A DNA stretch of 56,043 nt, taken from the NCBI GenBank assembly GCA_903959815.1, contig CAJBYM010000022.1, positions 1 to 56,043 of the forward strand, in the 5' to 3' direction. Source of the stretch: Candidatus Omnitrophota bacterium. Its GTDB lineage: Bacteria; Omnitrophota; Gorgyraeia; Zapsychrales; Fredricksoniimonadaceae. The stretch's first letter is position 1, and each line of letters opens with the position of its first letter. The notes under the pieces are model-generated. The model did no database searches. It was not told the origin of the DNA and saw only the letters and a list, made by a program, of their open reading frames with translations. A program made the translations under genes and the position numbers. Shown one piece after another: positions 7,246 through 47,631 of this stretch.

Positions 7246-8628
7246 TTAGAGCTTCTCGACATCCTTAAGAAGCTGCTTGCGATTAAGCCCGATGCGATTC
7301 ATGGCATCAGAAGAATCCAAACGGTACGCCCGGCAAAATGTGGTCACATCCTTGAGCGTATGAATACCACGGCTGTGAAGCTGTTTTAAGACAATAGCGC
7401 GCACGATCGTTTCGTTAATGATCTCACGCGGCGTCAACCCCGCCTCACGGGCCAATCTGTCACGGTAGATCGTGCTGGGCGACATCATGATCACGCGATT
7501 CTGCTCATAATTATACTTGTAAACCGGCGAAAGCAGGATCTTCTTCTGCTCCATCCCGCCTGTTTCACTGACTTCATCGACGACACGAAAAACCTTGTCT
7601 TCAATATGGAATCTTTTTAAAACAACGAACACATCAATAAGATTCACCAGCATCTCGGGAATATTCATCGGATCATTCTGAAGACGAATGATCGCCTCAC
7701 GCGACGTAAGGGCATGGATCGTACATATGCAATACTTACCCACATTCATGGCCGTGATCATATCACGCGCCTCAATGCCACGGACTTCACCGATGACAAT
7801 ACGCTCCGGGCGCATGCGCAAGCTATTTTTCACCAGATCAGCCAGCGAAAGCTCATCATCACTTTCCAAACGAGACACCGTATCCAACAAAAAGGTATTA
7901 AGCTCCAGCGTATCTTCAATGATAACCGTATGATCTTTTTCAGGAAAGAAACTAAAAAGAGCATTCAAAAGAGTTGTCTTCCCTGTTCCAGGACCACCCG
8001 CTAACATAATATTCGCAGGGCGAATGGACAACCCATCCACATAAACCCATAGCTGGGCCGCCACTTCATACGTCATACTACCACGGGCTACAAGATCCAA
8101 AATGCTAATAGGGTCAACCTTGGCCTTGGTGATCGTGATCTGAGCTCCGAAAGGCGATGTGATGATATTCGCACGTCCACCCAGATTGGAAAGCTCAAGG
8201 TCAATGATGCGGTTCATGCTGTCACGATTGGAGAAAACCAGAAGCTTCTTGATAAAGATATCGAGTTCGCGAATATGCTCAAATCTCTTGCCCGTATCAA
8301 CAAAGCCCTTCTCGCTGTGATGAATAAAAATAGGCTGCAACCCGTGGATCACAATATCTTCTACATCGCTGTCACACAAAAGCCCTTCGATGACACCATA
8401 AGAAAGAAATTCCCTGACAAAACTGGCCTTGCTCTCAGGCTTAGGAAATTCACTGTCAAAACGACGTGCCTTGTCATTGGCCAAGACGCTTTCCAAAGCA
8501 GCTGCAGCGATCTCCTCACGGTCATGGTCAGGTTGCAAGACCTGTAAACGACCTTTAAGCTTATCGAGCAGCTGATCTTCAAGTTCTAAACGGATATTTT
8601 TATTCATAACTGTAGGATAATTTAACAC
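7246..8628 (-). CDS. Type II/IV secretion-system family ATPase (CpaF/TadA/FlaI-like hexameric ATPase)
   Basis: Walker A GGPGTGKTTLLNAL, Walker B/Asp box TVIIEDTLEL, and ERIVIGEVRGIEARDMITAMNVG...CTIHA (His box). The track start at 8628 is GTG and an ATG lies at 8607; neither has a clear SD. Confidence 0.75.
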   Translation of the reverse strand: MLNYPTVMNKNIRLELEDQLLDKLKGRLQVLQPDHDREEIAAAALESVLANDKARRFDSEFPKPESKASFVREFLSYGVIEGLLCDSDVEDIVIHGLQPIFIHHSEKGFVDTGKRFEHIRELDIFIKKLLVFSNRDSMNRIIDLELSNLGGRANIITSPFGAQITITKAKVDPISILDLVARGSMTYEVAAQLWVYVDGLSIRPANIMLAGGPGTGKTTLLNALFSFFPEKDHTVIIEDTLELNTFLLDTVSRLESDDELSLADLVKNSLRMRPERIVIGEVRGIEARDMITAMNVGKYCICTIHALTSREAIIRLQNDPMNIPEMLVNLIDVFVVLKRFHIEDKVFRVVDEVSETGGMEQKKILLSPVYKYNYEQNRVIMMSPSTIYRDRLAREAGLTPREIINETIVRAIVLKQLHSRGIHTLKDVTTFCRAYRLDSSDAMNRIGLNRKQLLKDVEKL

Positions 8629-12967: not shown

Positions 12968-15766
12968 TCAATTCATGGCCGCTTCCTGCAAGAACGGCAA
13001 ACCTTCGAGCGACATGACAGAAATGATCTCGGGTGAAAATCCTTCTACGGCCTCAGGCGACATCTTCATGCCTTGCAAACCAAACTCTTGCCGTTGCCCC
13101 TTAAGGTCAAATGCACCATTAACATTCCGAACATCAATACCTCCTGTGATCTCAGACTTGTCGAATTCCCTCAAAACCTTAAGAACCAAACCCGTCGGCA
13201 ACTGATTCGCCGCTTGAACAATATCGCACATATAAATATAAGGTATCAAATATTTGTTCAAAGGTGAATTCTTGTCCCCGCCTTTATAATATTTGTGCTC
13301 CCAGTCATGCAAAAAAGCCTCGGTGGACTTAAACTGAACCTCTATGGTCCAAGCCCCATGGCCCAACATAAAAATAACATGCACGCCGTTATACCATTTA
13401 GGAGTTGATGTCTTTTTCTTTCTTTCCAAACTATAATAATTGATAACCCTGGCAACAATAGGCGCGTTGTTCTTAAAATTCTTTTTAATATCCTCGATTC
13501 GGGCCAAATCTCTTTGCAGTCGACCCTTTTCTTCCTGTTCTTCATCCGATAAACTTTCTCCAACAAGTCGTGCCAACTTCTTATTGATCTTTTGTTCAGC
13601 CGCTTGAAAATCACTCCAAAACTGCTTCAAAAATATGACCTGCTTCTTGGGATCAAGAAGGTCCTGCAATGACTTGAATAAATCCCTGGGATTATCATAA
13701 ATAAAACGCAGACCCAAGTAATCATAACCTTCCCTAGGATCAGGTGCCGGCTTTCCACTCCGCTGTGTATTAGAAAACTTCGCATTTAAACTCTCGGCAC
13801 CTTTGGGCCGACCCGCAATGATCTGCGGCTTTGTCCCCATAAGATCCTTCAAGCTTCTTGAAAAGTCATCGGATTTCTTTTGAAAAAGAACCTTGGATTC
13901 TTTGGCTATATTTATAGTCCATTGTTTCAACGAAACATTCGTAGGCACAATAAACTGCCCATCATTAGAGCGGCTATCGTTAATAATACCTGTATCATCC
14001 ATTTCATTGATCTGAGGAAATTTATTCAAATACTCAATTTCTTTCATTAACCGCAGAAAAAGCTCCTTATACTCTGCATCTGTCTTAAATTTCTTGACAA
14101 CAGAAGCCATTCTCGGGATCAACTCCGGATGAAGTTTTAGAATATACTCCCCCAGGATCTCTTGATAAGGAACGTCTTCATCTTTCGTACGCGACATCAT
14201 GGCCAAACCCCGCAAAATATCAAAGGTTTCCTGCGTGCGCGTACCACTCAGGATCTGTTTCTTTAATGCCGATTCTTCTTCGGGCTCATCCATAACATCA
14301 CCTGATGTTTCTGGACGCTTATCCAAAATATCTGCCAATGCTTTAACTAGGAGCTGCTTATGTTCTTCCCCATCCAAATAAAGGTCAAAAGCACCCTTAA
14401 CCTCCTTGACCATTCTTTCCTTATTGGCCTGAAGCAACGACCACTCACGGGATCCATAACTAAACTTTTTCTCCTCATCCTCAAAAATAATAAACGCAAG
14501 TTCCTTGATACTTTCCATCATCAATGCCATTCTTTCTTTACCTGGAAAATTATCACGTTTTATATCCGCAACAAACTCTGAAGGTGGTGCAAACTTATTC
14601 ACCTGCGGGTCAGGACCTCGCAAATCACCTTTTAGCTCAACATATTTCTTCTTCTTTCGCCCCTGCTTTTCTGAAGCATCCATAGAAGAACGCACCTTGA
14701 ACGTCTTCTCGGAGAAATCTTTGCCTATGCCGGTCGTAAACCCACCGGAAAGATATTTGCGCGGGATCGTCTCGCCGCTATAACGGTCAACTTCTTCTTT
14801 AATATAATTAAAAACCCCTTGGCGAAAGGCCTGAACATACTGATTGTAGATGCGCTGATTCTCAGCCACATCAGCCTGCTCTATACCTTTGACCTTACCC
14901 TGATCAACATAAGCCTTACCCAAAAAAGTCTCATGCATCGCCTTTTTATACCAAGTCGCAAGAATAAGCGCATTGTAAATCTGACGCAAGCGAGCGAAAT
15001 TCTTACCCTGATTCACTTCTTTCTCAAGAGCAGGAATGATGATCTGTCGCATCATGGACTTCGTTAATTCTTGCGTAGGGGCCGACCTTGTGTCGGCCCG
15101 TTCATGAGCTACAACATTATTGTCCATCGCGAGATAATCTGATTCCAGCATGACCTTCAGATGCGCTTTTAGGACCATGGCGCTCGTACCCTGCTGATAT
15201 ACCTCGGCAACATCAGGCATGATCCAGACTTTATTGAATGTATCCACCGGAATATCTGTAGTACCAAATTGATCCTGCGCCTGACGATAAACTTCTGCCC
15301 AGAAATCCTTACCAATCCCCTCTTCAGGATAAATGAGCGATGCCGTGATCTGTTTGAGCATATAATCCTGCGCCAAAAGATCACGCCCCATTTCCGTCAA
15401 GCCGAAACGATCATCAATGATGCGGTCTTTTTCATACGGAGAAAGGTTAACCCACAGCTGGTCTTCAGGAATCGTGAGAGAAACCATAAAATCTTTAACG
15501 AGCAGTAAATATTCATCTTTCCGGGCATCTCCTTGCGGCATCTGCCCCGGATCGACAAAAAACTGGAACTGCAAAGGATTTTCAGGATCAACGGTCAAGG
15601 CACTTAAGAGAGCTGGTTCAAAAGATGCGCTTAAAGCAACTTTATCTCCAGCAGGAGGCAGAAGAACAGCCTGGGCATGAACATACGCAGACGGAAAAGC
15701 TAATGCCAAAGCAAGGGCTCCGGCAATGAACCGCTTTAATATATTATTGTAAATACTGCAAATCAT
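12968..15766 (-). CDS. 932-aa signal-peptide protein: conserved N-terminal module, RelA/SpoT-type synthetase-like domain, conserved C-terminal module (paralogue of the 3,175-aa ORF)
   Basis: ATG at 15766. Signal peptide FIAGALALALAFPSAYVHA. Residues 32-345 align with the N-terminus of ORF 36406-45933. Residues ~645-830 carry GRPKGAESLNAK, DYLGLRFIY, WYNGVHVIF and IEVQFKSTEAFLHDWEHKYYKG in the RSH synthetase motif order. The last ~60 aa, GGIDVRNVNGAFDLKG...GFSPEIISVMSLEGLPFL, are shared with the giant ORF. Confidence 0.8.
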   Translation of the reverse strand: MICSIYNNILKRFIAGALALALAFPSAYVHAQAVLLPPAGDKVALSASFEPALLSALTVDPENPLQFQFFVDPGQMPQGDARKDEYLLLVKDFMVSLTIPEDQLWVNLSPYEKDRIIDDRFGLTEMGRDLLAQDYMLKQITASLIYPEEGIGKDFWAEVYRQAQDQFGTTDIPVDTFNKVWIMPDVAEVYQQGTSAMVLKAHLKVMLESDYLAMDNNVVAHERADTRSAPTQELTKSMMRQIIIPALEKEVNQGKNFARLRQIYNALILATWYKKAMHETFLGKAYVDQGKVKGIEQADVAENQRIYNQYVQAFRQGVFNYIKEEVDRYSGETIPRKYLSGGFTTGIGKDFSEKTFKVRSSMDASEKQGRKKKKYVELKGDLRGPDPQVNKFAPPSEFVADIKRDNFPGKERMALMMESIKELAFIIFEDEEKKFSYGSREWSLLQANKERMVKEVKGAFDLYLDGEEHKQLLVKALADILDKRPETSGDVMDEPEEESALKKQILSGTRTQETFDILRGLAMMSRTKDEDVPYQEILGEYILKLHPELIPRMASVVKKFKTDAEYKELFLRLMKEIEYLNKFPQINEMDDTGIINDSRSNDGQFIVPTNVSLKQWTINIAKESKVLFQKKSDDFSRSLKDLMGTKPQIIAGRPKGAESLNAKFSNTQRSGKPAPDPREGYDYLGLRFIYDNPRDLFKSLQDLLDPKKQVIFLKQFWSDFQAAEQKINKKLARLVGESLSDEEQEEKGRLQRDLARIEDIKKNFKNNAPIVARVINYYSLERKKKTSTPKWYNGVHVIFMLGHGAWTIEVQFKSTEAFLHDWEHKYYKGGDKNSPLNKYLIPYIYMCDIVQAANQLPTGLVLKVLREFDKSEITGGIDVRNVNGAFDLKGQRQEFGLQGMKMSPEAVEGFSPEIISVMSLEGLPFLQEAAMN

Positions 15767-19112: not shown

Positions 19113-19811
19113 TCAATATTTTCGAACACAACGAATATGCGCAAAAAGATCTGTCTTGCCCGTAGTGCCCTGACTGGCATTAGAGAAATACTGATACTCG
19201 GCGCCATAACCGCTCGTCTCCGTTGACGACCAGTAATAATACGTTGAAAACCCTTTGATCGCGTCCTTGTTGTTATAAAGGACATCGTTAACTTCTTTCT
19301 TGGCAGGTAGATACCAGTCGTTATACCCGCTATAAACCATATCCTGACAATATTTAGCCGCGTCCGTATCCGTATAAAAAGGAGACAGGGTTGTCAATTT
19401 ATTAGTGTTAAAAACGCCATCGGTCTCACTTGCCGCGCCTGTAACGACATTGTAAGCCGTTGTCCCTGAATTGTTGGCCCATTTCAATATTACAGTATCA
19501 TTATTAGCACCACCCGCACAAGTCGGATGGGTCAGATCCGCACCCGCGCACCCTCCGGGTGTGACCATATATTTATCCGTTGGAACAAGGTTCGCATAAT
19601 TCGTACCTCCATACAACGCCAGCGTACCATCGCACGCCTGTCCTATGGATTTCCCCGCGCAAGGATCAGTCACCAACGACGGAACAGCAATCTGCGCGCT
19701 GGATATCCTCGCGCCTGAAATGAAGGCCGCTTGTGCCGCATATGAAGCATCCATACATGCGAATAAAAAAAAAGGAAGAACAATAAATATCCGGCAAGTT
19801 TTAATAGCCAT
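19113..19811 (-). CDS. Secreted Cys-rich protein with DUF1566/Lcl-like C-terminal domain
   Basis: Signal peptide IFIVLPFFLFACMDASYA. The C-terminal YCQDMVYSGYNDWYLPAKKEVNDVLYNN...YYWSSTE...IRCVRKY resembles the DUF1566 fold family (from memory). It overlaps the pilD stop by 11 nt. Confidence 0.6.
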   Translation of the reverse strand: MAIKTCRIFIVLPFFLFACMDASYAAQAAFISGARISSAQIAVPSLVTDPCAGKSIGQACDGTLALYGGTNYANLVPTDKYMVTPGGCAGADLTHPTCAGGANNDTVILKWANNSGTTAYNVVTGAASETDGVFNTNKLTTLSPFYTDTDAAKYCQDMVYSGYNDWYLPAKKEVNDVLYNNKDAIKGFSTYYYWSSTETSGYGAEYQYFSNASQGTTGKTDLFAHIRCVRKY

Positions 19812-21003
19812 ACATCCCCATGACCCATCGGATGATCATATCACCCCAAAAAAGACTGGCAACAATACCGACAGCAAGAAATGGTCCGTAAGCAATCGCT
19901 GTATCCTGTCGACGTAAAACCTTGATCAGACCAAACACCGCTCCAATAAAAGGCGCAATAAAGAATGCCACCAGAGCCAACTGCCACCCTAAAAACGCAC
20001 CCGCCATGGCCAAGAATTTCACATCCCCCCAGCCCATGACCCCGCCCTGATCCACATCCTGCAGCATCGCAAAGATCTCCTGACGCTTATCCTCAAACAC
20101 AGGTTCAAGCTTTAGGCCTGCGGCCGTCTTCACATCACGCAACGCCGATTGAAGGCTCCCCTGAGCATCCACATAACCTGCCCCATGAAGGGCTTTCATC
20201 AGCGCCAAAGGATCATCCACCATACCTTTAAAATCAAATTCCGTCACAACACGTTTGGTGATCAAGACCTCTCCGATAAGCCCCGTGACCCAAAGGGAGC
20301 ACGCACCGATCACGGCACCCTGTAAAGCATCAGCAAGCGCCGCAAAAGACGTCGCGCAAGACGGGATGACACCTGCCAATGTCATCAATGACCATTGCAA
20401 TAACAAAAATGCCGTCCCCAAAAGAAGGATCTTCTTGTCTTCTCCATCAACGGGGATCTTAAAGCGAAATAACTTGAGCAGATGAAGCCCCATGCATGTG
20501 CCACCCAGAATAAAAGCGACCATGCTACCGACGATCAGCACTTCAGATGCCGGACCTTTATGAAGAGCAGGAATGAGCATGCTCAATAAGAAACCGACCC
20601 ACATCCCGCCCACACTAACCTCATCCGGAATGATACGCCACTCAAGATCCACAAACGATGCCACAACCAGAAGGCCGATGAGCACAAAAGCTGGAACCAA
20701 CACCCAGGAAAAACCAAACACGATATACGCAAAGAAGAATAAAGCCGCTGTTAAAAGTTCAACCACGAAATAATGCAACGGTATGCCTTTTTGACACGAG
20801 CGGCACCTGGCTTTTAGGGCCAAGAAACTGATCAAAGGAATGTTGTCATACCAATAGATCGGCGCCTGACACTGCGGGCAATGCGACGATGGAAAAACGA
20901 TCGATTCACTCTTGGGAAGACGGACAATGCACACATTAAGGAAACTGCCGATCAAAGCACCGAAAACAAAAAAGATAGTCCGCAAGAAGATCTCTATTTC
21001 CAT
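19801..21003 (-). CDS. pilD: Prepilin (type IV leader) peptidase, A24 family, with a large internal insertion
   Basis: N-terminal zinc knuckle CPQCQ...CRSCQ. First Asp region SFVDLEWRIIPDE and second Asp motif GWGDVKFLAMAGAFLG. 400 aa, compared with the usual ~250-290. Confidence 0.8.
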   Translation of the reverse strand: MEIEIFLRTIFFVFGALIGSFLNVCIVRLPKSESIVFPSSHCPQCQAPIYWYDNIPLISFLALKARCRSCQKGIPLHYFVVELLTAALFFFAYIVFGFSWVLVPAFVLIGLLVVASFVDLEWRIIPDEVSVGGMWVGFLLSMLIPALHKGPASEVLIVGSMVAFILGGTCMGLHLLKLFRFKIPVDGEDKKILLLGTAFLLLQWSLMTLAGVIPSCATSFAALADALQGAVIGACSLWVTGLIGEVLITKRVVTEFDFKGMVDDPLALMKALHGAGYVDAQGSLQSALRDVKTAAGLKLEPVFEDKRQEIFAMLQDVDQGGVMGWGDVKFLAMAGAFLGWQLALVAFFIAPFIGAVFGLIKVLRRQDTAIAYGPFLAVGIVASLFWGDMIIRWVMGMYGY

Positions 21004-36405: not shown

Positions 36406-39400
36406 CTACGGCAAGAGGAACAAACCGGGGTCCTCAAGCGGCTGGAAAGCTGTTATCCTGAAATCAAAACCCCGGAAAAGCTGAAGGAATTGCTGTGAAC
36501 TCTCGGGAGAGAAAATCTGAAGGCCAATATCGACAGGGGTAAGGATGCCCTTAAAATCAACGATGTCGGATACACCTGTAAGGTCAAGCCCGCCATTCTC
36601 CGGTAAGGCAGCGCTGTCAGGCTCTTCAGGCGCAGCAACCTCCTCGGATTTATCCAGCCCCGCCTGTTTCAGTTGCAAGCTGATATCCTCCATTTGATCC
36701 CGGAATTTGATATGCTCAACCTTGGCCGAACTATAGTTCGGCAGAATAGCGCCGGCTTCAATATCACCCCTGAAATCCTTTCTCGCTTCAAGAAAAAGAT
36801 CATAATACAACAAATACCGTTTGCGCGCCGCGTTCTGCTCATCGATCAGTTCCTTATGATCGAAACCGTTGTGCTCATAAACATCCGGCTGTGAGATCCT
36901 TTTCTCAAGATACGCCTTCAACAGCCGGTCCTCGGGCAATATCAAAGGATTGATGATATCATTAGTCATGTGCAAAAGCGGCAAACTGTTCCAAAGATCC
37001 GGATCCTGCTCAAGTTTATCAAGGACTTTCCCCAGGATGCTGACAGTCTTCGCGTTAAAGAACATGAGGCCGCTAAGCGCGGGGAACTGTTTCAATTTCT
37101 TACGCTTCAGATCAAAACGTGTATTCAGATAAATCAGCTCGTGATCGACGTACATCGGCTCACGGCCTTTGCGTTCAATATCAGAAACGATCATCTTCTC
37201 ATGGATCTCTGCAACGGCATTGGTCTGACCATCGGGGTCCATCTTCAGAAGACCAAGCGTCTCAAGCTCCTTTTCATTCACCCAGTCGGCCTGAACATTG
37301 ATATCCTTATCCGCCGTGAATTCTAGCATGGGACCGAAATACGCGTCGCGGCTGTAAACAGTGATCTGCCCGCCCTTCGAAAAAGGATCGTCCTTCTTCA
37401 GCTTGGCCGCCAAACGGTAACCGTTGATCAAAGCCCAGTCAAGGACCCTGTTGTCATGGAACTTATTCATACCATGAAAAACAAACATGGCCCGGACATC
37501 CTGCCACGGCTTACCGCGCAAGTGCGGATACCGGGCCAAAAAATCCGGGTCCTTCAGTTTTGTGCGCATGAACTGCAAGGCGCGCAGTTCGACATTGCCG
37601 CTCCCTTTTGCGCTCGGAGCAATTACCATCGGCACACTATCCCTGGTCATCACTCCCCTGCTGATATCCACATATTTATTAACCTCATCGACATAATCCA
37701 AATCTTCCGGGATAACGATGACCATGTCCACGCTGGGCGCCCCGCTGCCATTCACTTGTTCATTCAACGCAGCCTTGCCTTCGTCGACGGACCGCTTGAC
37801 CACTTTGTCCATCCCTTTGGCGCCATTGCCATTGGACGTCAAAGGATCACCATTCTTTTTATCAAAATTTTCATCAAGTTTATTATTGATAGCCTTCATA
37901 TCCTTGAGCCATTCCGGATGCGTGATGACATACTGCGCCCACCAGAACGACCCAAACTTGGCAATAGCCCCCAGAATAGTCATCACGATCAACCCATTGC
38001 CGAGCAAGGGCAGTCCGAGAAAACGGGCAAAGAATCCCAGCCCCAAAAATATCGGGGGGGCATAGAGGAAAAGACGGCCCCTCCACCTGCGCCACAGATC
38101 CGCCCGGGCCGCTGCAGCCGATGTCAGAGAATGCAGGGTCTCGGCTTCCGCTATCATATCCTCCAATATCTTTTTGCTCCTGCCCAGAAGATCTTCATCC
38201 TCGTTATAAATCCCCGGCATTAATTTGTTGCCCTTTATTCTGATCTCGGGGATGAGCTCATAGATCCTCTTGGTGGAAATGCCGATCTGATCGGTATATT
38301 TGATCCCATAACGCATAAAAGGATACACTTTGCTCTTTTCGATAAAATGATCATCCGACCCCTTATATCCCATCAGCTTGTCAACAGAGCCCCGGCTTTC
38401 AAAAAGTTCCAGGTAGTCTTCGAGGTACGTTTGCATGTCAAGCAAACGTGCCTTATCGTCAAAAAGCATTTCCGTCTGACGACTATCAAATCCTGAGTGG
38501 CTGTCCTGATAATGGTCAAGGGCATTGCGCAATTCGGTGATCGACAGATAAAGATGAAAGAACGTTTTCATGTACTTGCCGTTACGGATCTCGCCATCCT
38601 CCGACCCCCTGCCCATGAGCTCCGGCACGTAAGGCATGGAACGGATGACATGGTCATACTGGTTCAAGGCTTCATTAATGTCATGGATAACCCCTTGCGG
38701 ATCAACCCCCTCATCTTCGTTCCAGCTCTTAACAATATTTTGCACCTTGACCAGGCGCTTGCGCGCCGAATTATTGAAACCGTCCTCAGGAATGATCGTG
38801 AATGTCAGGCCAGCCGATGTGCCCAGAGCGCCGGGGATCAGGAACATTCTGGCAACCTTTTCTTTCCAGCTGGTTGTTTTGCGCTTGACGCGAATAACGT
38901 CCTTGCGCAAAGACACGACAAGGTCGTCAACCTTGCCATATTTTCTGAAAAATTTCTTCTGAACAAAGCCATGAGCAATGAAGGCCCCGGCCGCAAATAG
39001 CGCCCAAAAAGCGTACCAGATCGACGAAGGAGTGTTCGAGACATTCTGATCATTCTTCAAAATAGACTCTTCAAGGCTCTTCATTTTCTTTTCGATCTCT
39101 CTTTTCAGGGACTTCTGGGTCGAATTGACCGGATTGAAATCCTCGAAATGGGTGATGATCTTCATTGGATCGGTCTCACCGGCGATCTTGAGTCTCATAT
39201 CTTTAATGAGAGCCGTCTCTGCGGTCCCGAATTTGCTGTTGTTCCAGAAATCCAGTTGCGGGGTGTACTCGATGCGCGACTCGACCAAATCAAGGGCTAT
39301 GCCGATCGCCATGGCCTTGATCTGGGCCTTGACCATGTCCGCCCCGTTGGGACGGGGATCCGTGGCCGCATGCAATTCGCCGAAGGTAAAAGTCTTTAAA

Positions 39401-42400
39401 CGGATATTCAAAGGCCAATCCTGCCCGGTGCGTCCATACATCTTAATCATGCCCTCACGCAAGATACTCATGGACTCCGGATCAGGCATGGATTGAACAT
39501 CCGCCCGAAGCAGTGCTTCCCAAGTACGGCTTTCCACCAAAGACAACAGATCATTATCGCTGGAATGCACATACTCCCTCCAGGCCAGGATACGGCCGTC
39601 AGGTTTCTCCATCAGTTTATCCAATACCACACCTCTCTGGAATGTCGGAGAGGCAAGAATACGCGCCAGCTCAGAAAGCCCGGTCCCGTTAATATACTCT
39701 GTCTGGGCATCAGTTCCCAGGGCATCAAAATACGTCAGCATGTCCGTGCTCTCAAGGGACAGGTCCTTAAGCTCATACAACGGCGAGGCAGTCCCCTTAT
39801 TTTCAGGATCCCCGGAAGAGATCTCCCTGTCAGCCTCTTTCTCGGCCCCCCTGAGAAGATCCTTATCGACAAAGCCCTCCATGTCCCGGTTCTCGGGAGA
39901 AGCTGTGAAAAACCTCGTGTTCATGTCTTTAAAAATGTCGCGCATATGCGCGTCATAAATATCCCCTTCACTGACACCCAAACCGCCCAGATTTCTAAAT
40001 GCCCCTTTGTTAAAAAAGTCAGGAACGCTCTCCTCGAACTTACGCCGAATGAGCTCTTTTCTTATAATGGGCGCGAGCTTCGCCGCGGCAGGTTCTTTGG
40101 CGCCAAGAAGGTCATTGTGGATCCCGGCAAGCTGTCGCGTGGACCAGTAGTTACTTTGGAGAAACCGCTCTTTGCCGACCCAATCGTCAGGTGCGAAAGC
40201 AAGGAATGTCAGAAGCACGCGCCGGGCATCCTGGGGCGTCATCTTCATAAAATCAGCATCGCCGCCTTCCGAATAACTGGCTTCAGTCCAATGCCTGAGC
40301 ACGGTCGTATCCTGAATGAACAGATCATTCAAAGCCTGAAAACCCAGCCTGGCCAACGCCATATTGTTCTTGCTGATCGCTTGATCAATGGTATGAACAA
40401 AGAACCTGGGCTCGCTGCCATTCGTCTTGCTCATATTCATGAATAATCGCTGGACCACATCAGGGAACGGAGAATTCAGGACAGCTTTTTGTGCGACAAC
40501 CATGAATTTTCCGTCGTTCTGTCGCTCTTTCATGAAAAAATCCAAGGTCTGCGTGCGCGTGATAATATTAGGATCATGCATTAGGATATCGAGGAGCACA
40601 TCATATTCATCCTGTCCCTGATTTTGGCCACCCGCCATCATGGCCCACATGACCGCCGAACTAATTGTCTTGGGTGAAGAAGAATAATTCACATGGCCTG
40701 CGGACATACCGCTCACCTGCCCCGATGATACCGGTTGTGTCGACGATCCCTGCACGACTGCCGGCGCTGAATATGTCACAGAAAGGGCTGCCATACCGGT
40801 AATCGGAGGGGCAGCATGGAACCCAGTCCCGAAAGAAGAACTTGAAGAAGCTAGCGGCGAACTTCCGTACTTGAATGCAGATGCCGACGGCCCCCCGTAC
40901 CCGGGATTTACGGCATCTTGGACGGCCTCGACAACATCCTGCCCGATCGAAGAGCTTTGTACGGACGCCAATACGCGCGTCGTGCCGTAATCAAGAAGCT
41001 GCATCTGCGTCAACCGGGACTCCGCCTTGAAGTATTTAGCTTTAAGGTCATAAAGCGCCTGGGCGGTTCTTGCGATCTCCTCACGAGCGGCAACCTGTTC
41101 ATAAGGCGAGTAGAGGTCAGGCCGGGACGCCATGTTCTTCCAACTCTTGATGGCCTTAAGGTAGTCCTCATTCCCTTCCTTGATCTGCTGGCTCAAGCTA
41201 TTGATACTCGCCGCGACCTGCGTCAATTCTGATCCAACCTCGGCTCGGATGCGCTGCTGATCATTGACAAACTTGTTCATATTGATCGGCCCAATGTCCT
41301 TTAGCGCCTGATTTTTGGAATTATAAATGGGAATATTCACATTGACCGCACCGTTCGCTCCCGACTGGGAAGCGCTCGTCTTATAGGTGGAACCGGAATA
41401 CGGATCAACAGCCGTATTGCTGATATCCTGAGTTAAAAAAAGCCCATTCACATTGACCTCCGGAAGCGCGCCGAGCTTGTTAAGCTTGATTGTCATGGCC
41501 ATGCCCTCGATCATGGCCTTGGCCTCCTTAAGCTTGAAATTCGGGGTCTTATCACCCAACAAGGTTGAGCTCAAGGCATCCAGCTCGCTTTGCGACATGC
41601 CCGGAAAGTCCCCGTTCCAGGGGAACTCAGGCGAGAACTTCGTGCCAGATTCAAGCCCATGATAAAAATTCGCTTCAAACGTCCAGGCAACAAGGTCATC
41701 TTGCCATTTACTCAGATTGTTGCGCGAGGCCTTGATCTTCGCATGGAGCGCGTCTTTTTCAGCCGTAACAACATTCCCGACCTTTTCATTGGCTTCGACA
41801 ACCGCCAGAGCTTTATTAAGATCATTCAACAAGGCCTGAAGATGGTCAATATGCCACTGAGCATTGCCGACTTGGATATCCAGGTCTTGCGCGTGCTGAA
41901 TATTCCGGCTGACCAGATCTCCCATCACATATGTGAGCGCCTCGGTCTTCTTGACCTGAAGAGCCTTGAGCTTTTGCGGCTCCCCGGTGATGACCTTCAC
42001 AAGCTCTCCGACAAGAGTGGAAACGATCGGGGAAAGCGCCCCATAAATATTGCCCGTCGTTAGCCCACCCTGTATCCCGTTGAACACAAGTCCCAGCCCA
42101 CCGCTCACGCCCAGTTTGCCGTTATTGGAAACAATGCCGAATTTCAGATTAAAGCTCGAAGGGTTGGCAAACTTCTCCTTGGCGCGGCTTTCCTGGACCT
42201 CAAGCTCGGCCTTGCCGTTGATCAGAAAATTATTGGCCGTCCGCGTCGAAAGTTCTTTCATGCTGACTACCTGGCCTTTTGGCAATGAGAGCACGTCGAA
42301 GGAAACCGACACAGGCGCCGCGTTCTTCAAAGGAAGCAGGGGCATGCTGGTCGGCATGATCACTGCGTTGGCAAACTGTTGCTGTGTCGAGACCCTGATC

Positions 42401-45400
42401 TGCGCCGTGCCGCCACCCGAGCGCCCCCCATTCACCGCTGGCTCTGCTCCATAACTCACAGACCTCGCCGCGCTATTGAACATGGCCAACACAAGGTCCT
42501 TGTCCTCATCCGTGGGCACGATCACTTTGACCGGCAGGTTCGGCTGAAGGACATTGTTGATATCTTCCGCTAGGATCTCGACCGTCTGGACACCACTTAG
42601 CCTCATGGTCTGGCCCATGGGCATGGTGTTGACATTCTTGACCCTCGCCGGCACATACTCTCCCCAGGGAGTCATAAGAACGATAGGATCATTGAACTGA
42701 AGACTGATATTGTCAGGCAACTGGATCGTATTATTCATGTCGTAAAGACTGCCCAGCGGGACCTCACTGGGCTTGATGCGCAGCATCTCATCGGCAAATG
42801 CAAAAGAAGAAACGCTCATCGCTGAAATTGACGTCACGATGCCATTAGCAGGCGCCGTGACTCGCGTGCGGCGGACCTGTTTCCTGAGCGCTTTAAGTTT
42901 TGCCCCTAAAGCAGCAGCTTTTTCCTCAAGCTCATCCATCTGGTCATTAGAAAAATGCTGGACACCATCCCGAGGGGCAGACATCTCAAGCTGGGACTTG
43001 ACCGCTTCATAAGCCTTAAGCGTGCTTTTGTACTCTTCCGACGCGGAGCCTTCCACAATGACCATAAGCTGGCCTTTCTTTACCGTCTGGCCCAGCTTGA
43101 CAAAATACTGCGCAGTGCCATCCACCGGAGAAGGAACCAGGAGTTCTGCCGACGCAGGAACGCTTGAGATCGCCCAACCCTTCGCGTTGATGACAGGCGC
43201 ATTGGCCGAGAGCACCGGCGGCAGTATCTCAAGGTTCAAATGCGCATTCCTCGAATTTGAAATGGGCGCGGAGGGCTCGACAAGAAAGGTCACCCGCGCG
43301 AGATTATGCGTGGGATCAGGGTCTACGGCCACGTTAAGGATCCGCCTGACCTGCTGGCCGTCGATCTCAAACCTTCCGAAATATCCGAAAAACGCCTTAT
43401 TATAGGGCATCTCAACCGTCAGCCGCACCCTATCCTGGTCAATATATTCGAACATCTCCGTCCCCTTCTTGACAGGAGTGTTGTTGTAGATCCTCATATT
43501 CTTGATAAGCAAACGGGACGGCGCTCTGACCGTAAAAAGACGACGTTGATTGTCGAGCCGGGCTTTGACCTGGTTGCGCTGGGCCACCTGCCCCTCGACG
43601 GCACGAACTTTTACGGCTGGCATATTCCCGTTAGCGTTCAATTCCAGGGATCTATTCAATTTCGCGCCGCTGATCTTTAACAACTCATCATTCGTCTCGC
43701 TTTGCTCCAGGACATCATCTTCCTCAATGTTGAACATGACCGCGCCGCTCTGGTATCCATTTGCTCCCCGGTTCAGCCCCGAAACATAACCGGTCGTCTG
43801 GGCCACCATCGTCCTCTCATCGGGAACAAGCCCGACCTGTTTCGAGATGGTAAATGTTCCGGACGTTGACGAAAACGATGATGCCGTCGTTGAAGACTGC
43901 TTGACCATCACCGGGGCCGAAACCGGTGCAACAGTTTTTACCGGAGCAACATACGGGCTTGAAACAACCTTCTTCGGTGGCGGAAGAGGTGGCCGCGGAG
44001 GCCCCCCCGAACCTGATACCGCACTTTCAACAGTATTAGACGCCGCCATGGTTATCGTTACAGGCTTAGATTTTACGAAATCTTTGTTCACAACAGACAC
44101 CGGTCTTACAAGGGACGGCGATTTCACGCCCATCGATGTTTTAACTTCTTTCGCCTTGGATACTGACGAATTCTTCTCAACAGAAGGCACCTTGACCTTA
44201 ACATCTGATTTCGCCGCCGCAGACGTCGTCTTCACAACAGCCGTCCCGGTCATCAACGACCCCAATGCTCCGCGTGTCTGAGGCCCTATGTCCCCATCCT
44301 CAACAATCCCCATTTTATGCTGAGCAACAATAACGATCGCCTCCTGCATCCACCCCATCGTAGATGAAGAAAAGATCTTGTCCCAATTGCGCTCAATGGC
44401 ATCAGCATCAAAATCATAGGCTTGTCCCGTCAAAGGATTCTCTTTTCCCTGAATATCCCTGACATCATCGATGGTCAGAAAACCATTCATAAATGAAAAA
44501 TATTTTTGATCCTCTTCAAGGATAGGATCTCCTCGACTAATGATCTTCCGCGACACATCCTCAAGAGAGATCACATTCCGGGGACCTCCATTATTTTGCG
44601 CCACCTGCACCATATGGGTGGAATCAACAGGAACATGGAATGCCCCTTGCCCAGCGCCCTGAATCCCAAGACCTGACATGGAAGAAAGAAAAAGCCCTCC
44701 GGCAAAAGCCAACCCCAAAAGGCTTTTCCTGGACATCCCCCGGGGAACCAAAGAAACTGTAAAACGAAAAATATTCTTACCAAAACGATTCATTAAAGAA
44801 ACAAGCTCCGGCCTTGTCAAGGACCAGACAGGCATGATCTCGGTCCGCTCCGCCGCATCCTCGAAAGAAAATCCCCCTGAGAAATAATGGCGCGGAACGA
44901 CCTCCTGTTGATCCGTGTCATAATCCTCACGGATGATATCGTAAACCCCTTTTTTCAACGCCACCATATACTGGGCATAAATCTTTTGGGCGATCTCTTT
45001 GTCTTGTATTTGAATGCCAGATGTTTTCTTTTTATTGCTGTATATTTGATTAACAATGTGCTTCTGAAGCTTCTTCTTAAACCAGATCGCAAGGACCAAG
45101 GAATTGAACATTTGACGCAATTGTGAGAAATAATGACCCTCATTAACTTCCCGCTCAAGCTCAGGAATGATGATGTCGCGTGCGATCATCAGATATAACC
45201 CCGTAATCTCCTTTTCCGCATGTACAGAGACTTTATCCTCAGCAGCCGTCTTTTTAAGAGTCAAATAATCCTGATCAAGCAAAACCTTCAATCGGCTTTC
45301 AGCAATAAAAGCCATGCCCTTTTGCTCATAAACAACAGCTTTCTGTGGAACCACCCACACCTTGCTGAATGTGTCGAGCGGAAGATCAACCTCACCGTAT

Positions 45401-45933
45401 TTATTTCTGATCTTGGAACGCACCTGTTCCCAAAAAGATTTCCCCGGCTCCACATCGGGAAAGGTCATCGACGCCGCCATCTGTTTCAAGAGATAATCCT
45501 GCCTGAGCAGATCCTCACCGACAGCGGTGCCGCCCAAAACCGGATTAACAATACGATCCGGCTCGGAAGGAGAAAGATTGACCCAAAGATCTTTTTCCGG
45601 AATGGTCAAAAAAGCGAGAAAATATTTGATCAGGCGCTGTGACCCTTCTTCATTAAAGTTCGGATGTTCTCCCGCATCAACGAGAAAATCGATCTTCAGC
45701 GGATCAATCGGATCAATGGATATCGCTTTCAGAAGAGGGCATGCAGCCGTGGATGATGCAGACAATAAAACGCCAGGAGGAGGATCCATAATAATGCTTT
45801 GCGCATAAGCATCCTTAACACGCAAAAGATCAATCCCGATAGTGTTGCCGGTATAGATCACCAGTAGCGCACAACACACAAAACGGAAGGAGCGTGACCA
45901 TCCTGAATTTCTCTGCTGCATCAATGAATACAT
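36406..45933 (-). CDS. Giant (3,175-aa) signal-peptide multidomain envelope protein: shared N-module, PG-binding-like motif, two MFP(HlyD)-like units, TolC-like coiled coils, TM helices, unknown domains, shared C-module
   Basis: An uninterrupted 9.5-kb ORF with ATG at 45933 and signal peptide CCALLVIYTGNTIGIDLLRVKDAYA. Supporting motifs: GIVEDGDIGPQTRGALGSL; VKLGQTVKKGQLMVIVEGS ... coiled coil ... RVTAPANGIVTSI; and LGALPEVNVNGLF / NVNIPIYNSKNQ / YEQVAAREEIARTAQALYDLKAKYFKAESRL. Hydrophobic helices at aa 2305-2324 and 2620-2670. All long plus-strand ORFs inside it are low-complexity shadows. Confidence 0.85.
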   Translation of the reverse strand: MYSLMQQRNSGWSRSFRFVCCALLVIYTGNTIGIDLLRVKDAYAQSIIMDPPPGVLLSASSTAACPLLKAISIDPIDPLKIDFLVDAGEHPNFNEEGSQRLIKYFLAFLTIPEKDLWVNLSPSEPDRIVNPVLGGTAVGEDLLRQDYLLKQMAASMTFPDVEPGKSFWEQVRSKIRNKYGEVDLPLDTFSKVWVVPQKAVVYEQKGMAFIAESRLKVLLDQDYLTLKKTAAEDKVSVHAEKEITGLYLMIARDIIIPELEREVNEGHYFSQLRQMFNSLVLAIWFKKKLQKHIVNQIYSNKKKTSGIQIQDKEIAQKIYAQYMVALKKGVYDIIREDYDTDQQEVVPRHYFSGGFSFEDAAERTEIMPVWSLTRPELVSLMNRFGKNIFRFTVSLVPRGMSRKSLLGLAFAGGLFLSSMSGLGIQGAGQGAFHVPVDSTHMVQVAQNNGGPRNVISLEDVSRKIISRGDPILEEDQKYFSFMNGFLTIDDVRDIQGKENPLTGQAYDFDADAIERNWDKIFSSSTMGWMQEAIVIVAQHKMGIVEDGDIGPQTRGALGSLMTGTAVVKTTSAAAKSDVKVKVPSVEKNSSVSKAKEVKTSMGVKSPSLVRPVSVVNKDFVKSKPVTITMAASNTVESAVSGSGGPPRPPLPPPKKVVSSPYVAPVKTVAPVSAPVMVKQSSTTASSFSSTSGTFTISKQVGLVPDERTMVAQTTGYVSGLNRGANGYQSGAVMFNIEEDDVLEQSETNDELLKISGAKLNRSLELNANGNMPAVKVRAVEGQVAQRNQVKARLDNQRRLFTVRAPSRLLIKNMRIYNNTPVKKGTEMFEYIDQDRVRLTVEMPYNKAFFGYFGRFEIDGQQVRRILNVAVDPDPTHNLARVTFLVEPSAPISNSRNAHLNLEILPPVLSANAPVINAKGWAISSVPASAELLVPSPVDGTAQYFVKLGQTVKKGQLMVIVEGSASEEYKSTLKAYEAVKSQLEMSAPRDGVQHFSNDQMDELEEKAAALGAKLKALRKQVRRTRVTAPANGIVTSISAMSVSSFAFADEMLRIKPSEVPLGSLYDMNNTIQLPDNISLQFNDPIVLMTPWGEYVPARVKNVNTMPMGQTMRLSGVQTVEILAEDINNVLQPNLPVKVIVPTDEDKDLVLAMFNSAARSVSYGAEPAVNGGRSGGGTAQIRVSTQQQFANAVIMPTSMPLLPLKNAAPVSVSFDVLSLPKGQVVSMKELSTRTANNFLINGKAELEVQESRAKEKFANPSSFNLKFGIVSNNGKLGVSGGLGLVFNGIQGGLTTGNIYGALSPIVSTLVGELVKVITGEPQKLKALQVKKTEALTYVMGDLVSRNIQHAQDLDIQVGNAQWHIDHLQALLNDLNKALAVVEANEKVGNVVTAEKDALHAKIKASRNNLSKWQDDLVAWTFEANFYHGLESGTKFSPEFPWNGDFPGMSQSELDALSSTLLGDKTPNFKLKEAKAMIEGMAMTIKLNKLGALPEVNVNGLFLTQDISNTAVDPYSGSTYKTSASQSGANGAVNVNIPIYNSKNQALKDIGPINMNKFVNDQQRIRAEVGSELTQVAASINSLSQQIKEGNEDYLKAIKSWKNMASRPDLYSPYEQVAAREEIARTAQALYDLKAKYFKAESRLTQMQLLDYGTTRVLASVQSSSIGQDVVEAVQDAVNPGYGGPSASAFKYGSSPLASSSSSFGTGFHAAPPITGMAALSVTYSAPAVVQGSSTQPVSSGQVSGMSAGHVNYSSSPKTISSAVMWAMMAGGQNQGQDEYDVLLDILMHDPNIITRTQTLDFFMKERQNDGKFMVVAQKAVLNSPFPDVVQRLFMNMSKTNGSEPRFFVHTIDQAISKNNMALARLGFQALNDLFIQDTTVLRHWTEASYSEGGDADFMKMTPQDARRVLLTFLAFAPDDWVGKERFLQSNYWSTRQLAGIHNDLLGAKEPAAAKLAPIIRKELIRRKFEESVPDFFNKGAFRNLGGLGVSEGDIYDAHMRDIFKDMNTRFFTASPENRDMEGFVDKDLLRGAEKEADREISSGDPENKGTASPLYELKDLSLESTDMLTYFDALGTDAQTEYINGTGLSELARILASPTFQRGVVLDKLMEKPDGRILAWREYVHSSDNDLLSLVESRTWEALLRADVQSMPDPESMSILREGMIKMYGRTGQDWPLNIRLKTFTFGELHAATDPRPNGADMVKAQIKAMAIGIALDLVESRIEYTPQLDFWNNSKFGTAETALIKDMRLKIAGETDPMKIITHFEDFNPVNSTQKSLKREIEKKMKSLEESILKNDQNVSNTPSSIWYAFWALFAAGAFIAHGFVQKKFFRKYGKVDDLVVSLRKDVIRVKRKTTSWKEKVARMFLIPGALGTSAGLTFTIIPEDGFNNSARKRLVKVQNIVKSWNEDEGVDPQGVIHDINEALNQYDHVIRSMPYVPELMGRGSEDGEIRNGKYMKTFFHLYLSITELRNALDHYQDSHSGFDSRQTEMLFDDKARLLDMQTYLEDYLELFESRGSVDKLMGYKGSDDHFIEKSKVYPFMRYGIKYTDQIGISTKRIYELIPEIRIKGNKLMPGIYNEDEDLLGRSKKILEDMIAEAETLHSLTSAAAARADLWRRWRGRLFLYAPPIFLGLGFFARFLGLPLLGNGLIVMTILGAIAKFGSFWWAQYVITHPEWLKDMKAINNKLDENFDKKNGDPLTSNGNGAKGMDKVVKRSVDEGKAALNEQVNGSGAPSVDMVIVIPEDLDYVDEVNKYVDISRGVMTRDSVPMVIAPSAKGSGNVELRALQFMRTKLKDPDFLARYPHLRGKPWQDVRAMFVFHGMNKFHDNRVLDWALINGYRLAAKLKKDDPFSKGGQITVYSRDAYFGPMLEFTADKDINVQADWVNEKELETLGLLKMDPDGQTNAVAEIHEKMIVSDIERKGREPMYVDHELIYLNTRFDLKRKKLKQFPALSGLMFFNAKTVSILGKVLDKLEQDPDLWNSLPLLHMTNDIINPLILPEDRLLKAYLEKRISQPDVYEHNGFDHKELIDEQNAARKRYLLYYDLFLEARKDFRGDIEAGAILPNYSSAKVEHIKFRDQMEDISLQLKQAGLDKSEEVAAPEEPDSAALPENGGLDLTGVSDIVDFKGILTPVDIGLQIFSPESSQQFLQLFRGFDFRITAFQPLEDPGLFLLP

Positions 45934-46402: not shown

Positions 46403-46966
46403 TTACGGTAAACGGGGATCAAAACGGGGCAAGGGCTCGATCAAGACACCGCCGGCGCTCTTTTCCGGATTCTTTTCTTTGATTCTTCTGATGTCATTTT
46501 TGATGGCATCAATCTCATCCAGGATCTTGGGAAGACCCTGGTCAACGATCTCTGATGTCGAATTTAACGACACCTCAAGCGCATCAACTTTTTGCTGAAT
46601 CGACACCAACGTGCTCACATAATCTTTCTGCCACTCTTTGGTATCATCCTTGATCTTCCAAGCCTCTGCCCTGCTCTGGGAAATGACGGACTTTATCTCA
46701 ACGATAGAATCCTTAATCTGCGGGATCAACTCGCCGATCTGGGCATTTTCTTTCTGAACTTTCTCAAACTTAACACGTTGTTCCTCGAGGCCGTTTTTCA
46801 AATCCTTGATCCCCACCTTCAACTCTTGTATATTTTTCTGTTGATCAGCCGTATACGTCCCCATCCATTCAAGAGACCTTTGTTGCTGGGCATAACAATA
46901 AAAAGAAAAGACGGTCATAGCAATAACCATGACCACCCCGATAATATTCAACAACCGTCTGAACAT
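46403..46966 (-). CDS. Membrane-anchored coiled-coil protein (about 187 aa), last gene of the pst-phoU operon
   Basis: The ATG at 46966 overlaps the phoU TGA. N-terminal TM IIGVVMVIAMTVFSFYCYA followed by heptad-like K/E/Q-rich sequence. Confidence 0.6.
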   Translation of the reverse strand: MFRRLLNIIGVVMVIAMTVFSFYCYAQQQRSLEWMGTYTADQQKNIQELKVGIKDLKNGLEEQRVKFEKVQKENAQIGELIPQIKDSIVEIKSVISQSRAEAWKIKDDTKEWQKDYVSTLVSIQQKVDALEVSLNSTSEIVDQGLPKILDEIDAIKNDIRRIKEKNPEKSAGGVLIEPLPRFDPRLP

Positions 46967-47631
46967 CAAAGCCTTTCCGGATGATGCTTGACCACCTCAG
47001 CTTTGACCATATAGATGACATCCTCTGCAATATAAGTAGCATGGTCAGAAACGCGCTCAAGAAATCGAGCGATCAACAGGAGTTGAACAGCACGCGGCGC
47101 TGAGGACGGATCCCTGGCGATATAAACATCAACAAGTTCTTTGTGGATCGCATCACGCAAAGCATCCGCCTCCGGCTCCATGGCAAGAACCATCTTGGCT
47201 ATCTCAATATCACGGGCAATAAATGCATCAATGGACATCCTGACCATCTTTTGTGCGATCGATGCTAACTTGGGAATATCCACCAAAGGCTTAAGCAAAG
47301 GCTCATCTGCCATCTCAATAACATGTTGAGAAATATCGACCGCAAGATCCGCGATACACTCAAGTTCATTGTTAAGCCGCATGCCTGTTGTAATAAACCT
47401 GAGATCCACGGCCATAGGCTGTTGCCGGGCAATAAGATCAAGGCACTTCTCATCGATGATCAGTTCCAATTCATCGATACAACTGTCATTGTCAATGACC
47501 GATTGTGCAGCATCAACATCACGACTTTTTAATGCTGCGATCGATCTCGCCACCGCTTCTTCCGCCAAAGTCCCCATCTTAAGGATATCATTATTCAATT
47601 CTGCTAATTCTTCATGAAAATGTTTACTCAT
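46966..47631 (-). CDS. phoU: Phosphate-uptake regulator PhoU
   Basis: MSKHFHEELAELNNDILKMG... with two PhoU repeats (DxxxD-type helices, e.g. ERVSDHATYIAEDV). ATG at 47631; the track's longer ORF overlaps arsC. Confidence 0.85.
   Translation of the reverse strand: MSKHFHEELAELNNDILKMGTLAEEAVARSIAALKSRDVDAAQSVIDNDSCIDELELIIDEKCLDLIARQQPMAVDLRFITTGMRLNNELECIADLAVDISQHVIEMADEPLLKPLVDIPKLASIAQKMVRMSIDAFIARDIEIAKMVLAMEPEADALRDAIHKELVDVYIARDPSSAPRAVQLLLIARFLERVSDHATYIAEDVIYMVKAEVVKHHPERL

Follow-up and report, generated by a model that had tools for sequence, protein, structure and literature searches.

Two tandem adaptor units and a TolC-type channel protomer fused within one giant protein of Candidatus Omnitrophota

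The stretch of DNA analysed here (the window) comprises 56,043 nucleotides from a Candidatus Omnitrophota bacterium (contig CAJBYM010000022.1 of assembly GCA_903959815.1) and is bacterial chromosome with nearly all of its genes on the minus strand. On that strand, at window positions 36406-45933, a single uninterrupted open reading frame (ORF), stop codon included, encodes a giant protein of 3,175 amino acids (aa). Residue n of this protein corresponds to window position 45933-3(n-1), so that 40984-43611, where the first-pass annotation of the window placed adaptor-like and TolC-like modules, is aa 775-1650. The feature itself occupies aa 700-1672 (window 40918-43836, minus strand) and is a genuine conserved fusion of two membrane fusion protein (MFP) units, that is periplasmic adaptors, followed by one TolC-type protomer. 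On its N-terminal side the chain has an exported region and on its C-terminal side one in which three transmembrane helices are conserved, and full-length orthologues of 2,800-3,500 aa are present in Omnitrophota metagenomes. To our knowledge, every tripartite pump and type I secretion system described so far builds its channel, adaptor and transporter from separate proteins. The parts of the fused segment, in their order along the chain and with the evidence on which each is based, are as follows.

43219-43836, minus strand: adaptor (MFP) unit 1, aa 700-905, with its alpha-hairpin at aa ~739-799 (AlphaFold2 (AF2) model, HlyD_3, PDB profile search, hhalign)
42460-43191, minus strand: adaptor (MFP) unit 2, aa 915-1158, with its alpha-hairpin at aa ~964-1022 (HlyD_D23, Biotin_lipoyl, RND_mfp, PDB profile search, Foldseek)
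42298-42459, minus strand: variable spacer between unit 2 and the channel, aa 1159-1212 (low occupancy and conservation in the orthologue alignment)
40918-42297, minus strand: TolC-type protomer, aa 1213-1672 (AF2 model, Foldseek, Pfam OEP, strand alternation)

In the whole query protein the adaptor segment is matched in Pfam by HlyD_D23 (E 1.6e-4, aa 944-1054), HlyD_3 (E 0.011, aa 801-888) and, weakly, Biotin_lipoyl (aa 939-961), and in NCBIfam by RND_mfp (E 3.4e-5) and type_I_hlyD (E 4.2e-4), the RND_mfp score being 23 against a curated cut-off of 94.9. The isolated block scores 22.6 with HlyD_3 (Pfam cut-off 22.2), 23.9 with Biotin_lipoyl (22.1) and 28.1 with HlyD_D23 (30). Since the query's own profile scores are marginal, the orthologues were brought in. 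RND_mfp matches 14 of 15 of them, with a best E of 1.4e-22, and in the adaptor blocks of 19 members Pfam finds Biotin_lipoyl in 17, HlyD_3 in 16, HlyD_D23 in 15, HlyD_2 in 10 and Biotin_lipoyl_2 in nine. Only adaptors and lipoyl domains were matched when a profile of the block was searched against PDB sequences, among them a Bacteroides adaptor (4l8j, E 1.5e-13), MacA (7e-12), EmrA (1e-8), MexA (4e-6), MexJ, LipC and others. Most of the PDB adaptors align as two stretches, one for each half of the block. The unit 1 half is matched by 4l8j, EmrA, MexJ, CusB, ZneB and MexC and the unit 2 half by MacA and MexA, and the alignments of MacA, MexA, 4l8j and EmrA cross the lipoyl-hairpin junctions of both units.

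The AF2 model of the adaptor block (predicted local distance difference test, pLDDT, 83.3) contains the same series of elements twice: strands, a helical hairpin, strands and a strand-rich barrel region. Model and profiles together resolve both units into a lipoyl half, an alpha-hairpin, a second lipoyl half and a beta-barrel. The hairpin helices have 27-29 residues each in unit 1, and 22 and 27 in unit 2, and the strand-rich segments of the beta-barrels lie at aa ~826-905 and aa ~1049-1140. Foldseek finds 68 matches to the model in the PDB at E<=1e-3, the best 50 of which are all adaptors. Among the matches listed are MexA (3.5e-11), AcrA, MacA, ZneB, EmrA and Spr0693, with each adaptor alignment covering ~250 of 461 columns, which is one unit; the MexA chains aligned in this way consist of hairpin, lipoyl and barrel domains. 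The profiles of the two units also align with each other (hhalign, 96% probability, E 4.9e-9, 161 columns), and with E. coli AcrA (E 0.003 for unit 1, 3e-5 for unit 2) in alignments that are colinear but weak and serve for element mapping only. Both units are internal in the chain, are joined by ~11 residues and have no membrane anchor of their own. We conclude that the block holds two complete MFP units in tandem, at aa 700-905 and aa 915-1158. The first-pass annotation, whose quoted peptides all lie where it placed them, had seen the full adaptor order at aa 935-1145, which profiles and models bear out as unit 2. It had also seen a second, partial unit at aa 775-900; the adaptor nature of this region stands, but the AF2 model and the hhalign comparison give a whole unit in place of a partial one.

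For the channel segment, OEP scores 23.1 bits in the whole query (Pfam cut-off 22), in repeat 2 only (aa 1465-1602), and 28.1 bits in the isolated block; 14 of 19 orthologues are matched, with a best E of 5.8e-17. A profile search of PDB sequences with the channel block gave no outer-membrane factor (OMF), only coiled-coil noise, so the homology of the channel is visible only through Pfam OEP and fold comparison. The AF2 model (mean pLDDT 74.9, predicted template modelling score 0.72, helices above 90) has the order short helix, beta-hairpin, long helix, return helix twice over, the long helices being 67 and 64 residues in length. All 44 of its Foldseek matches in the PDB at E<=1e-3 are OMFs, including ST50, OprM, TolC, CmeC, OprN, CusC, VceC and MtrE. 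The 39 of these that are folded-channel entries reach E 4.6e-13, over 440-490 columns of 460 and with a template modelling (TM) score of ~0.6, and the next matches after the OMFs come at E above 0.1. Sequence identity to solved OMFs is 9-19%, and between channel repeats 1 and 2 hhalign detects no sequence similarity. The hhalign comparison with E. coli TolC (E 0.006), which is again colinear but weak and of use for element mapping only, aligns LPEVNVNGLF...AVNVNIPIY with LPTLDLTAST...GLSFSLPIY, and the first helical tip KVGNVVTAEKDAL with TolC NVGLVAITDVQNA. Across 19 orthologues the strand segments show alternating hydrophobic columns, and the outer loop is variable and sometimes deleted, as in TolC. 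The module is internal in the chain, not free-standing, and carries no export signal of its own. From these results aa 1213-1672 is a complete two-repeat TolC-type protomer. The OMF-like character that had been suggested for aa ~1320-1650 is therefore confirmed by OEP and Foldseek; the extent given, and the description as repeats, give way to a whole protomer.

The fusion is conserved. A search with the whole protein returned 730 relatives, which carry the label Candidatus Omnitrophota or Omnitrophica wherever the source gives a name. Some 30 of these relatives, with lengths of 2,800-3,500 aa, can be aligned with the greater part of the query (22-46% identity), and most of the others have only aa ~16-360 in common with it. 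An exhaustive phmmer search with aa 750-1700 as a single sequence against 1.84 billion representatives found 46 proteins only, nearly all of them members of the same family or fragments, typically matched over the whole 950-residue stretch unbroken, and no free adaptor or TolC protein was among the 46. An alignment of 32 sequences has conserved blocks at aa ~700-1158 and ~1216-1665, with a variable spacer between them and low-complexity linkers on the flanks. When hidden Markov models (HMMs) of nine modules of the giant protein were run over 146 retrieved proteins, the full order of N-terminal domain, (peptidoglycan motif), MFP unit 1, MFP unit 2, OMF repeat 1, OMF repeat 2 and the domains H, C1 and C2 was present in 31, the shorter matches being fragments. 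When one genome for each GTDB species was scanned for the pattern, with an 8-sequence alignment as the query, eight further loci with the same module order emerged, five of them labelled Omnitrophota or Omnitrophica and the others 'Ca. Elulimicrobium sp.', 'uncultured Planctomycetales' and 'bacterium'. A 2:1 ratio of adaptor to channel is thus encoded per chain in the 31 retrieved proteins and the eight loci. In 26 complete orthologues the spacers measure 8-66 aa (median 11) between the MFP units, 27-72 aa (median 44) between unit 2 and the channel, and 26-97 aa (median 58) between the channel and H. The covalent fusion of adaptor and OMF-like modules, with transmembrane helices further on in the same chain, had been put forward in the first-pass annotation, and on this the profile tests (marginal in the query, stronger in the orthologues), the comparison of the models with PDB structures and the ~30 Omnitrophota orthologues that keep the fusion agree.

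Members of the family bear automatic names such as 'TolC family protein', 'biotin carboxyl carrier protein' and 'hypothetical protein', the first two of which the fusion shows to be misleading. In one relative of 3,623 aa (P0146) a channel-like repeat stands upstream of the adaptors, in a different order.

On either side of the fused segment the chain is made up of the following parts.

45799-45933, minus strand: Sec-type signal peptide, aa 1-45, with a basic n-region, a hydrophobic core and an AYA/Q site (read from the sequence by eye)
44734-45816, minus strand: N-terminal domain, aa 40-400, with similarity from ~16 (BLASTP ranges and module census)
44668-44724, minus strand: hydrophobic segment, aa 404-422, with LxPxGxSRK in front (family-mean hydropathy 1.33, alignment consensus)
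44239-44421, minus strand: possible peptidoglycan-binding motif, aa 505-565 (GIVEDGDIGPQTRGAL), weak (PG_binding_1 and PG_binding_3)
40657-40917, minus strand: low-complexity spacer, aa 1673-1759 (composition, low alignment occupancy)
39034-40656, minus strand: conserved domain H, aa 1760-2300, predicted to be periplasmic (module HMM in all orthologues)
38962-39027, minus strand: transmembrane helix, aa 2303-2324 (conserved hydrophobicity; seven Lys/Arg in 20 residues of the next loop)
38074-38958, minus strand: conserved domain C1, aa 2326-2620, predicted to be cytoplasmic (module HMM, flanking charges)
37930-38073, minus strand: transmembrane helical hairpin, aa 2621-2668 (conserved hydrophobicity; five Arg in front)
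36409-37926, minus strand: conserved domain C2, aa 2670-3175, predicted to be cytoplasmic (module HMM; sub-threshold CofC hint)

Sec-like signal peptides ending in AxA/Q were read by eye in the query and 18 relatives. Hydrophobic segments conserved in the family lie at aa 16-37, 404-422 (moderate), 2303-2324, 2621-2639 and 2650-2668. Positive charges are concentrated at aa 2326-2362 (seven Lys/Arg in the 20 residues after 2324) and at aa 2600-2620 (five Arg). By the positive-inside rule this points to a location outside the cytoplasm for aa ~425-2300 and inside it for C1 and C2, an arrangement that suits the weak peptidoglycan-binding-like motif, the adaptors and the channel. The motif itself is matched by PG_binding_1 (E 0.003) and PG_binding_3 (E 0.002), each weakly and in one of 15 orthologues, and roughly every second orthologue is matched by its module HMM. 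As isolated regions the N-terminal domain, H and C1 have no Pfam match at E<=10, and a whole-protein profile found nothing outside the adaptor region among PDB sequences. In C2 a CofC-like (nucleotidyltransferase) match falls below the Pfam cut-off (E 0.0037), and no peptidase domain was found by Pfam in the giant chain. The stretch at aa ~392-422 (window 44668-44760, minus strand), with the conserved LxPxGxSRK, a Gly/Ala-rich hydrophobic stretch and a GAGQGA-like end, resembles a signal peptide set 400 residues into the chain. G+C content is 0.52-0.54 at window 40001-44000, over the linkers, adaptors and channel, against ~0.44-0.50 in the flanks, which probably reflects an amino-acid composition rich in Ala, Gly, Pro and Val.

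The two ends of the protein have a wider distribution. The N-terminal domain, which matches no Pfam family or PDB sequence, is common to hundreds of Omnitrophota proteins of 1,700-5,300 aa at ~45% identity, in which the other parts include glycolytic enzymes, kinases, methyltransferases, NUDIX and receiver domains. The last ~80 residues (aa ~3095-3175, window 36409-36651, minus strand; GGxDL ... FxGFxF) form a C-terminal tail that also ends six otherwise unrelated proteins with the N-terminal domain (P0033, P0035, P0036, P0038, P0093 and P0099). This suggests that the N-terminal domain and the tail are 'bookend' modules of a protein superfamily.

In known pumps, as in the structures of AcrAB-TolC, MexAB-OprM and MacAB-TolC that are among the Foldseek matches, three channel protomers are combined with six adaptors, with two non-equivalent adaptor positions for each channel protomer, and three copies of the giant chain would supply exactly that set. 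We favour, with moderate confidence, a reading in which three chains make up a self-contained duct across the envelope, where H, the helices, C1 and C2 stand in for the inner-membrane partner. The chain would trimerise through its TolC-like module, and the three protomers would build a 12-stranded outer-membrane barrel with a periplasmic alpha-tunnel ~100 A long. The six adaptor units, two from each chain, would form a hexameric sleeve that docks by its hairpin tips to the tips of the channel, and the 6:3 ratio of adaptor to channel in AcrAB-TolC, MexAB-OprM and MacAB-TolC would be reproduced in cis. The C-terminal helices would anchor the assembly in the inner membrane and, together with H, C1 and C2, replace the inner-membrane partner. 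Because both termini of a TolC protomer are periplasmic, an internal module of this kind could enter the outer membrane without its flanks being threaded across. In the same way, both termini of an adaptor unit are at its barrel end, so that a link of 11 residues can join neighbours in the ring. The spacers of ~44 and ~58 residues are, by our estimate, long enough to span the distance from the adaptor ring to the equatorial region of the channel. A bolder and rather unlikely reading is that three copies of this one chain are a new type of export machine, complete in a single gene and reaching across the envelope, with an undescribed inner-membrane/cytoplasmic engine in H, C1 and C2. If so, the machine may serve the large Omnitrophota proteins that share the N-terminal domain and the C-terminal tail; alternatively, a polymer synthesised by the nucleotidyltransferase-like C2 may be what it exports.

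Several results weigh against the self-contained duct. The chain has no recognisable RND (resistance-nodulation-division), ABC (ATP-binding cassette) or MFS (major facilitator superfamily) domain by Pfam, in the query or the orthologues, and a motif scan found no Walker A motif in the whole 3,175 aa. The adaptor units, of ~205-245 aa, are without the membrane-proximal domain that contacts RND and ABC transporters, and their target-normalised Foldseek TM score is ~0.65 for truncated MexA chains against ~0.46 for full chains. The query's own Pfam scores are marginal for the adaptors and for the channel, and in the monomer model the beta-hairpin segments of the channel block (local positions 46-100 and 277-325; four strands) have a pLDDT <50. 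The segment at aa 404-422, with four Lys/Arg in front and none behind and a mean hydropathy of 1.33, could act as a stop-transfer helix after a cleaved signal peptide and leave the modules in the cytoplasm; this is unlikely, since the charge rule would then be broken at three sites. There are also relatives in which the outer-membrane part is reduced. P0005, P0006, P0007 and P0015 keep both adaptor units and have the channel cut down, the first three of these being 43% identical to the query in the N-terminal third. This tip-only subfamily retains HMM positions ~133-234 of channel repeat 1 and ~128-198 of repeat 2 (aa 1179-1366 in P0005), that is the lower halves of the long helices, both periplasmic tips and the return helices, and lacks the beta-hairpins and the upper tunnel. 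What is kept is exactly the portion on which, in known pumps, the adaptor hairpins dock. P0017 has the adaptors and no channel module, and P0013 has neither module type. The family can therefore do without an outer-membrane pore; its core is the N-terminal domain, H, C1 and C2, with the adaptor-channel cassette usual and not obligatory. Our confidence is kept at a middling level by three things: some variants have no barrel, the membrane-proximal domain is missing and a known engine is lacking.

Some of the same observations would fit an envelope strut, that is a rigid membrane-inserted scaffold that holds the two membranes and the peptidoglycan together, or places other domains, and transports nothing. 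No domain of a transporter or an ATPase is present in the chain, the possible peptidoglycan-binding motif precedes the modules, the remainder of the protein persists in relatives whose channel module is tip-only or missing, and there is no conserved cargo gene nearby. We nevertheless consider a strut unlikely, as a tether needs none of the channel anatomy (long tunnel helices, both beta-hairpins) that is kept in full across 22-46% identity, and the conserved 2:1 ratio of adaptor to channel would be superfluous to it. The modules could also be tethered subunits of a conventional pump, assembling with an inner-membrane transporter whose gene lies elsewhere in the genome and perhaps also with free TolC or adaptors. 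Canonical OEP and RND genes exist in Omnitrophota genomes, the adaptor units score best with RND-type adaptor models (RND_mfp in the 14 of 15 orthologues), and a free channel could be the docking partner of the tip-only subfamily. This role seems to us quite unlikely, as a transporter gene is not a conserved neighbour in five contexts, the units do not have the domain by which RND and ABC transporters are gripped, and the chain has its own inner-membrane anchor.

It is very unlikely that the chain is a polyprotein that is cleaved in its low-complexity spacers after export, freeing ordinary adaptors and a channel at a fixed 2:1. Variable low-complexity spacers do separate the modules, and built-in peptidases have been suggested to process Omnitrophota giant proteins of other families (bioRxiv 10.1101/2023.11.21.568195). 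In the chain studied here, however, there is no peptidase domain, a conserved cleavage motif is not seen, and the spacer between the two MFP units is just ~11 residues. An assembly or frameshift error that joined separate genes, or generic coiled coils that mimic the helices, might be suspected from the near-threshold Pfam scores of the query and from frame breaks in three of the eight further loci (L009, L011 and L013, copies in metagenome-assembled genomes), which are probably assembly errors in repetitive or low-complexity DNA and possibly real pseudogenes. These breaks lie in the low-complexity linker after the N-terminal domain (L011) and inside C2 (L009 and L013), none of them between modules, and the same continuous architecture is found in ~30 independent assemblies from different sources. 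As the order is the same in ~30 orthologues and eight further loci, with stable spacers, an assembly artefact is excluded. Against chance resemblance, the parts that are not coiled match too (lipoyl halves, beta-barrels and beta-hairpins), and there is the gap in the Foldseek matches that follow the OMFs. We take the likelihood of either kind of error to be negligible.

Compared with known systems, the adaptor-channel fusion unites diverged versions of two known folds, that of the OMFs and that of the three-domain adaptors, in a novel covalent arrangement. The channel shares with the TolC/OprM family (Pfam OEP, PF02321; TCDB 1.B.17) the two-repeat protomer, tunnel helices of ~65 residues and two beta-hairpins, the 'LP..L...' strand start and 'IPIY' strand end align to E. 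coli TolC, and Foldseek relates it to this fold at E 5e-13 to 2e-9 with a TM score of ~0.6. Unlike TolC and OprM it is embedded mid-chain, with no signal peptide or lipobox of its own. The adaptor units resemble MexA, AcrA, MacA and EmrA (HlyD family) in the lipoyl domain that is split by an alpha-hairpin and followed by a beta-barrel, and MexA and AcrA also in hairpin helices of ~27-29 residues. They differ in their tandem arrangement, in having no individual anchor and no membrane-proximal domain, and in the channel that follows covalently. In being without the membrane-proximal domain they resemble three-domain adaptors such as EmrA.

The pair of non-identical adaptor units for each channel protomer recalls TriABC-OpmH of Pseudomonas, in which two different adaptors, TriA and TriB, fill the two non-equivalent places of the hexamer. 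In the PDB profile search a 695-residue chain of 6vej, an engineered fusion, was matched with two stretches, and TriA/TriB with this fusion is the nearest functional analogy for the adaptor pair. The linked TriA-TriB pair is reportedly functional in the engineered construct. In contrast to TriABC-OpmH, the pair in the giant protein is naturally fused, is further fused to the channel and has no associated RND transporter. Trimeric autotransporters (type Vc) also form a 12-stranded barrel, with four strands from each of three identical chains and large non-barrel parts in cis. The likeness to these is conceptual only, with no relationship of sequence or fold, and the barrel proposed for the giant protein would differ in being of the TolC type, mid-chain and with both flanks periplasmic. 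With tripartite pumps the chain shares the 2:1 ratio of adaptor to channel, here encoded in the chain; it differs from these and from type I secretion systems in that no energised inner-membrane transporter (RND, ABC or MFS) was detected in the chain, nor is one conserved beside the gene. The accessible parts of the Omnitrophota giant-protein literature and of a 2021 review of tripartite systems contain no description of a natural adaptor-channel fusion, and a 2026 catalogue of Omnitrophota giant proteins covers only those of at least 10,000 aa.

The stoichiometry of the pumps and their tip-to-tip docking have long been disputed. From evolution, a natural chain that carries a pair of adaptors for each channel protomer adds independent evidence that this pair is the unit that repeats and that the complex is 6:3, and it offers structural work a stoichiometrically locked object. 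The fused chain would also indicate that a TolC-type barrel is insertable from the middle of a very long polypeptide. Omnitrophota are uncultured, probably host-dependent and known for giant proteins, and one conserved family of ~3,000 residues among these now gains a concrete, testable role in the envelope.

The gene is not tied to one genomic neighbourhood. In the window a two-component system, a Porin_5 protein, pstSCAB, phoU and a small coiled-coil ORF lie upstream of it and rpsB, tsf, pyrH and frr downstream, the adjacent ABC genes being those of the pstSCAB-phoU phosphate uptake operon. A close orthologue (P0003, contig L001) has the same pst-phoU / rpsB-tsf neighbourhood. A distant one (P0029) lies between kdpC and kdpD (L002, contig JAGWOQ010000002.1, 10001-19261), with a separate canonical OEP and RND pair ~6 kb downstream, and P0030, P0009 and P0007 have still other neighbours. 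No transporter, cargo or accessory gene is conserved as a neighbour over these five orthologue contexts and the window. A sigma-70-like site, which is a consensus match only, lies ~400 bp upstream of the start codon of the giant gene, and Rfam and tRNA scans gave nothing relevant to the gene. The coiled-coil ORF between phoU and the giant gene encodes 188 aa (window 46403-46969, minus strand), and an unannotated ORF of 164 aa stands in its place on the syntenic contig L001.

The window also holds a smaller protein with the same N-terminal domain (module HMM E 5e-121), here behind a textbook signal peptide, in an ORF of 932 aa (window 12968-15766, minus strand). It has no Pfam match, and a RelA/SpoT-like motif noticed in it by eye was dropped, being without Pfam support. 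Its last ~60 residues weakly resemble the C-terminal tail of the giant protein (BLASTP E 0.002). Other envelope machinery encoded in the window comprises a ShlB/FhaC-type outer-membrane transporter of two-partner secretion, a PilB-like type II/IV secretion ATPase and a prepilin peptidase (window 3866-5584, 7246-8628 and 19801-21003, all on the minus strand).

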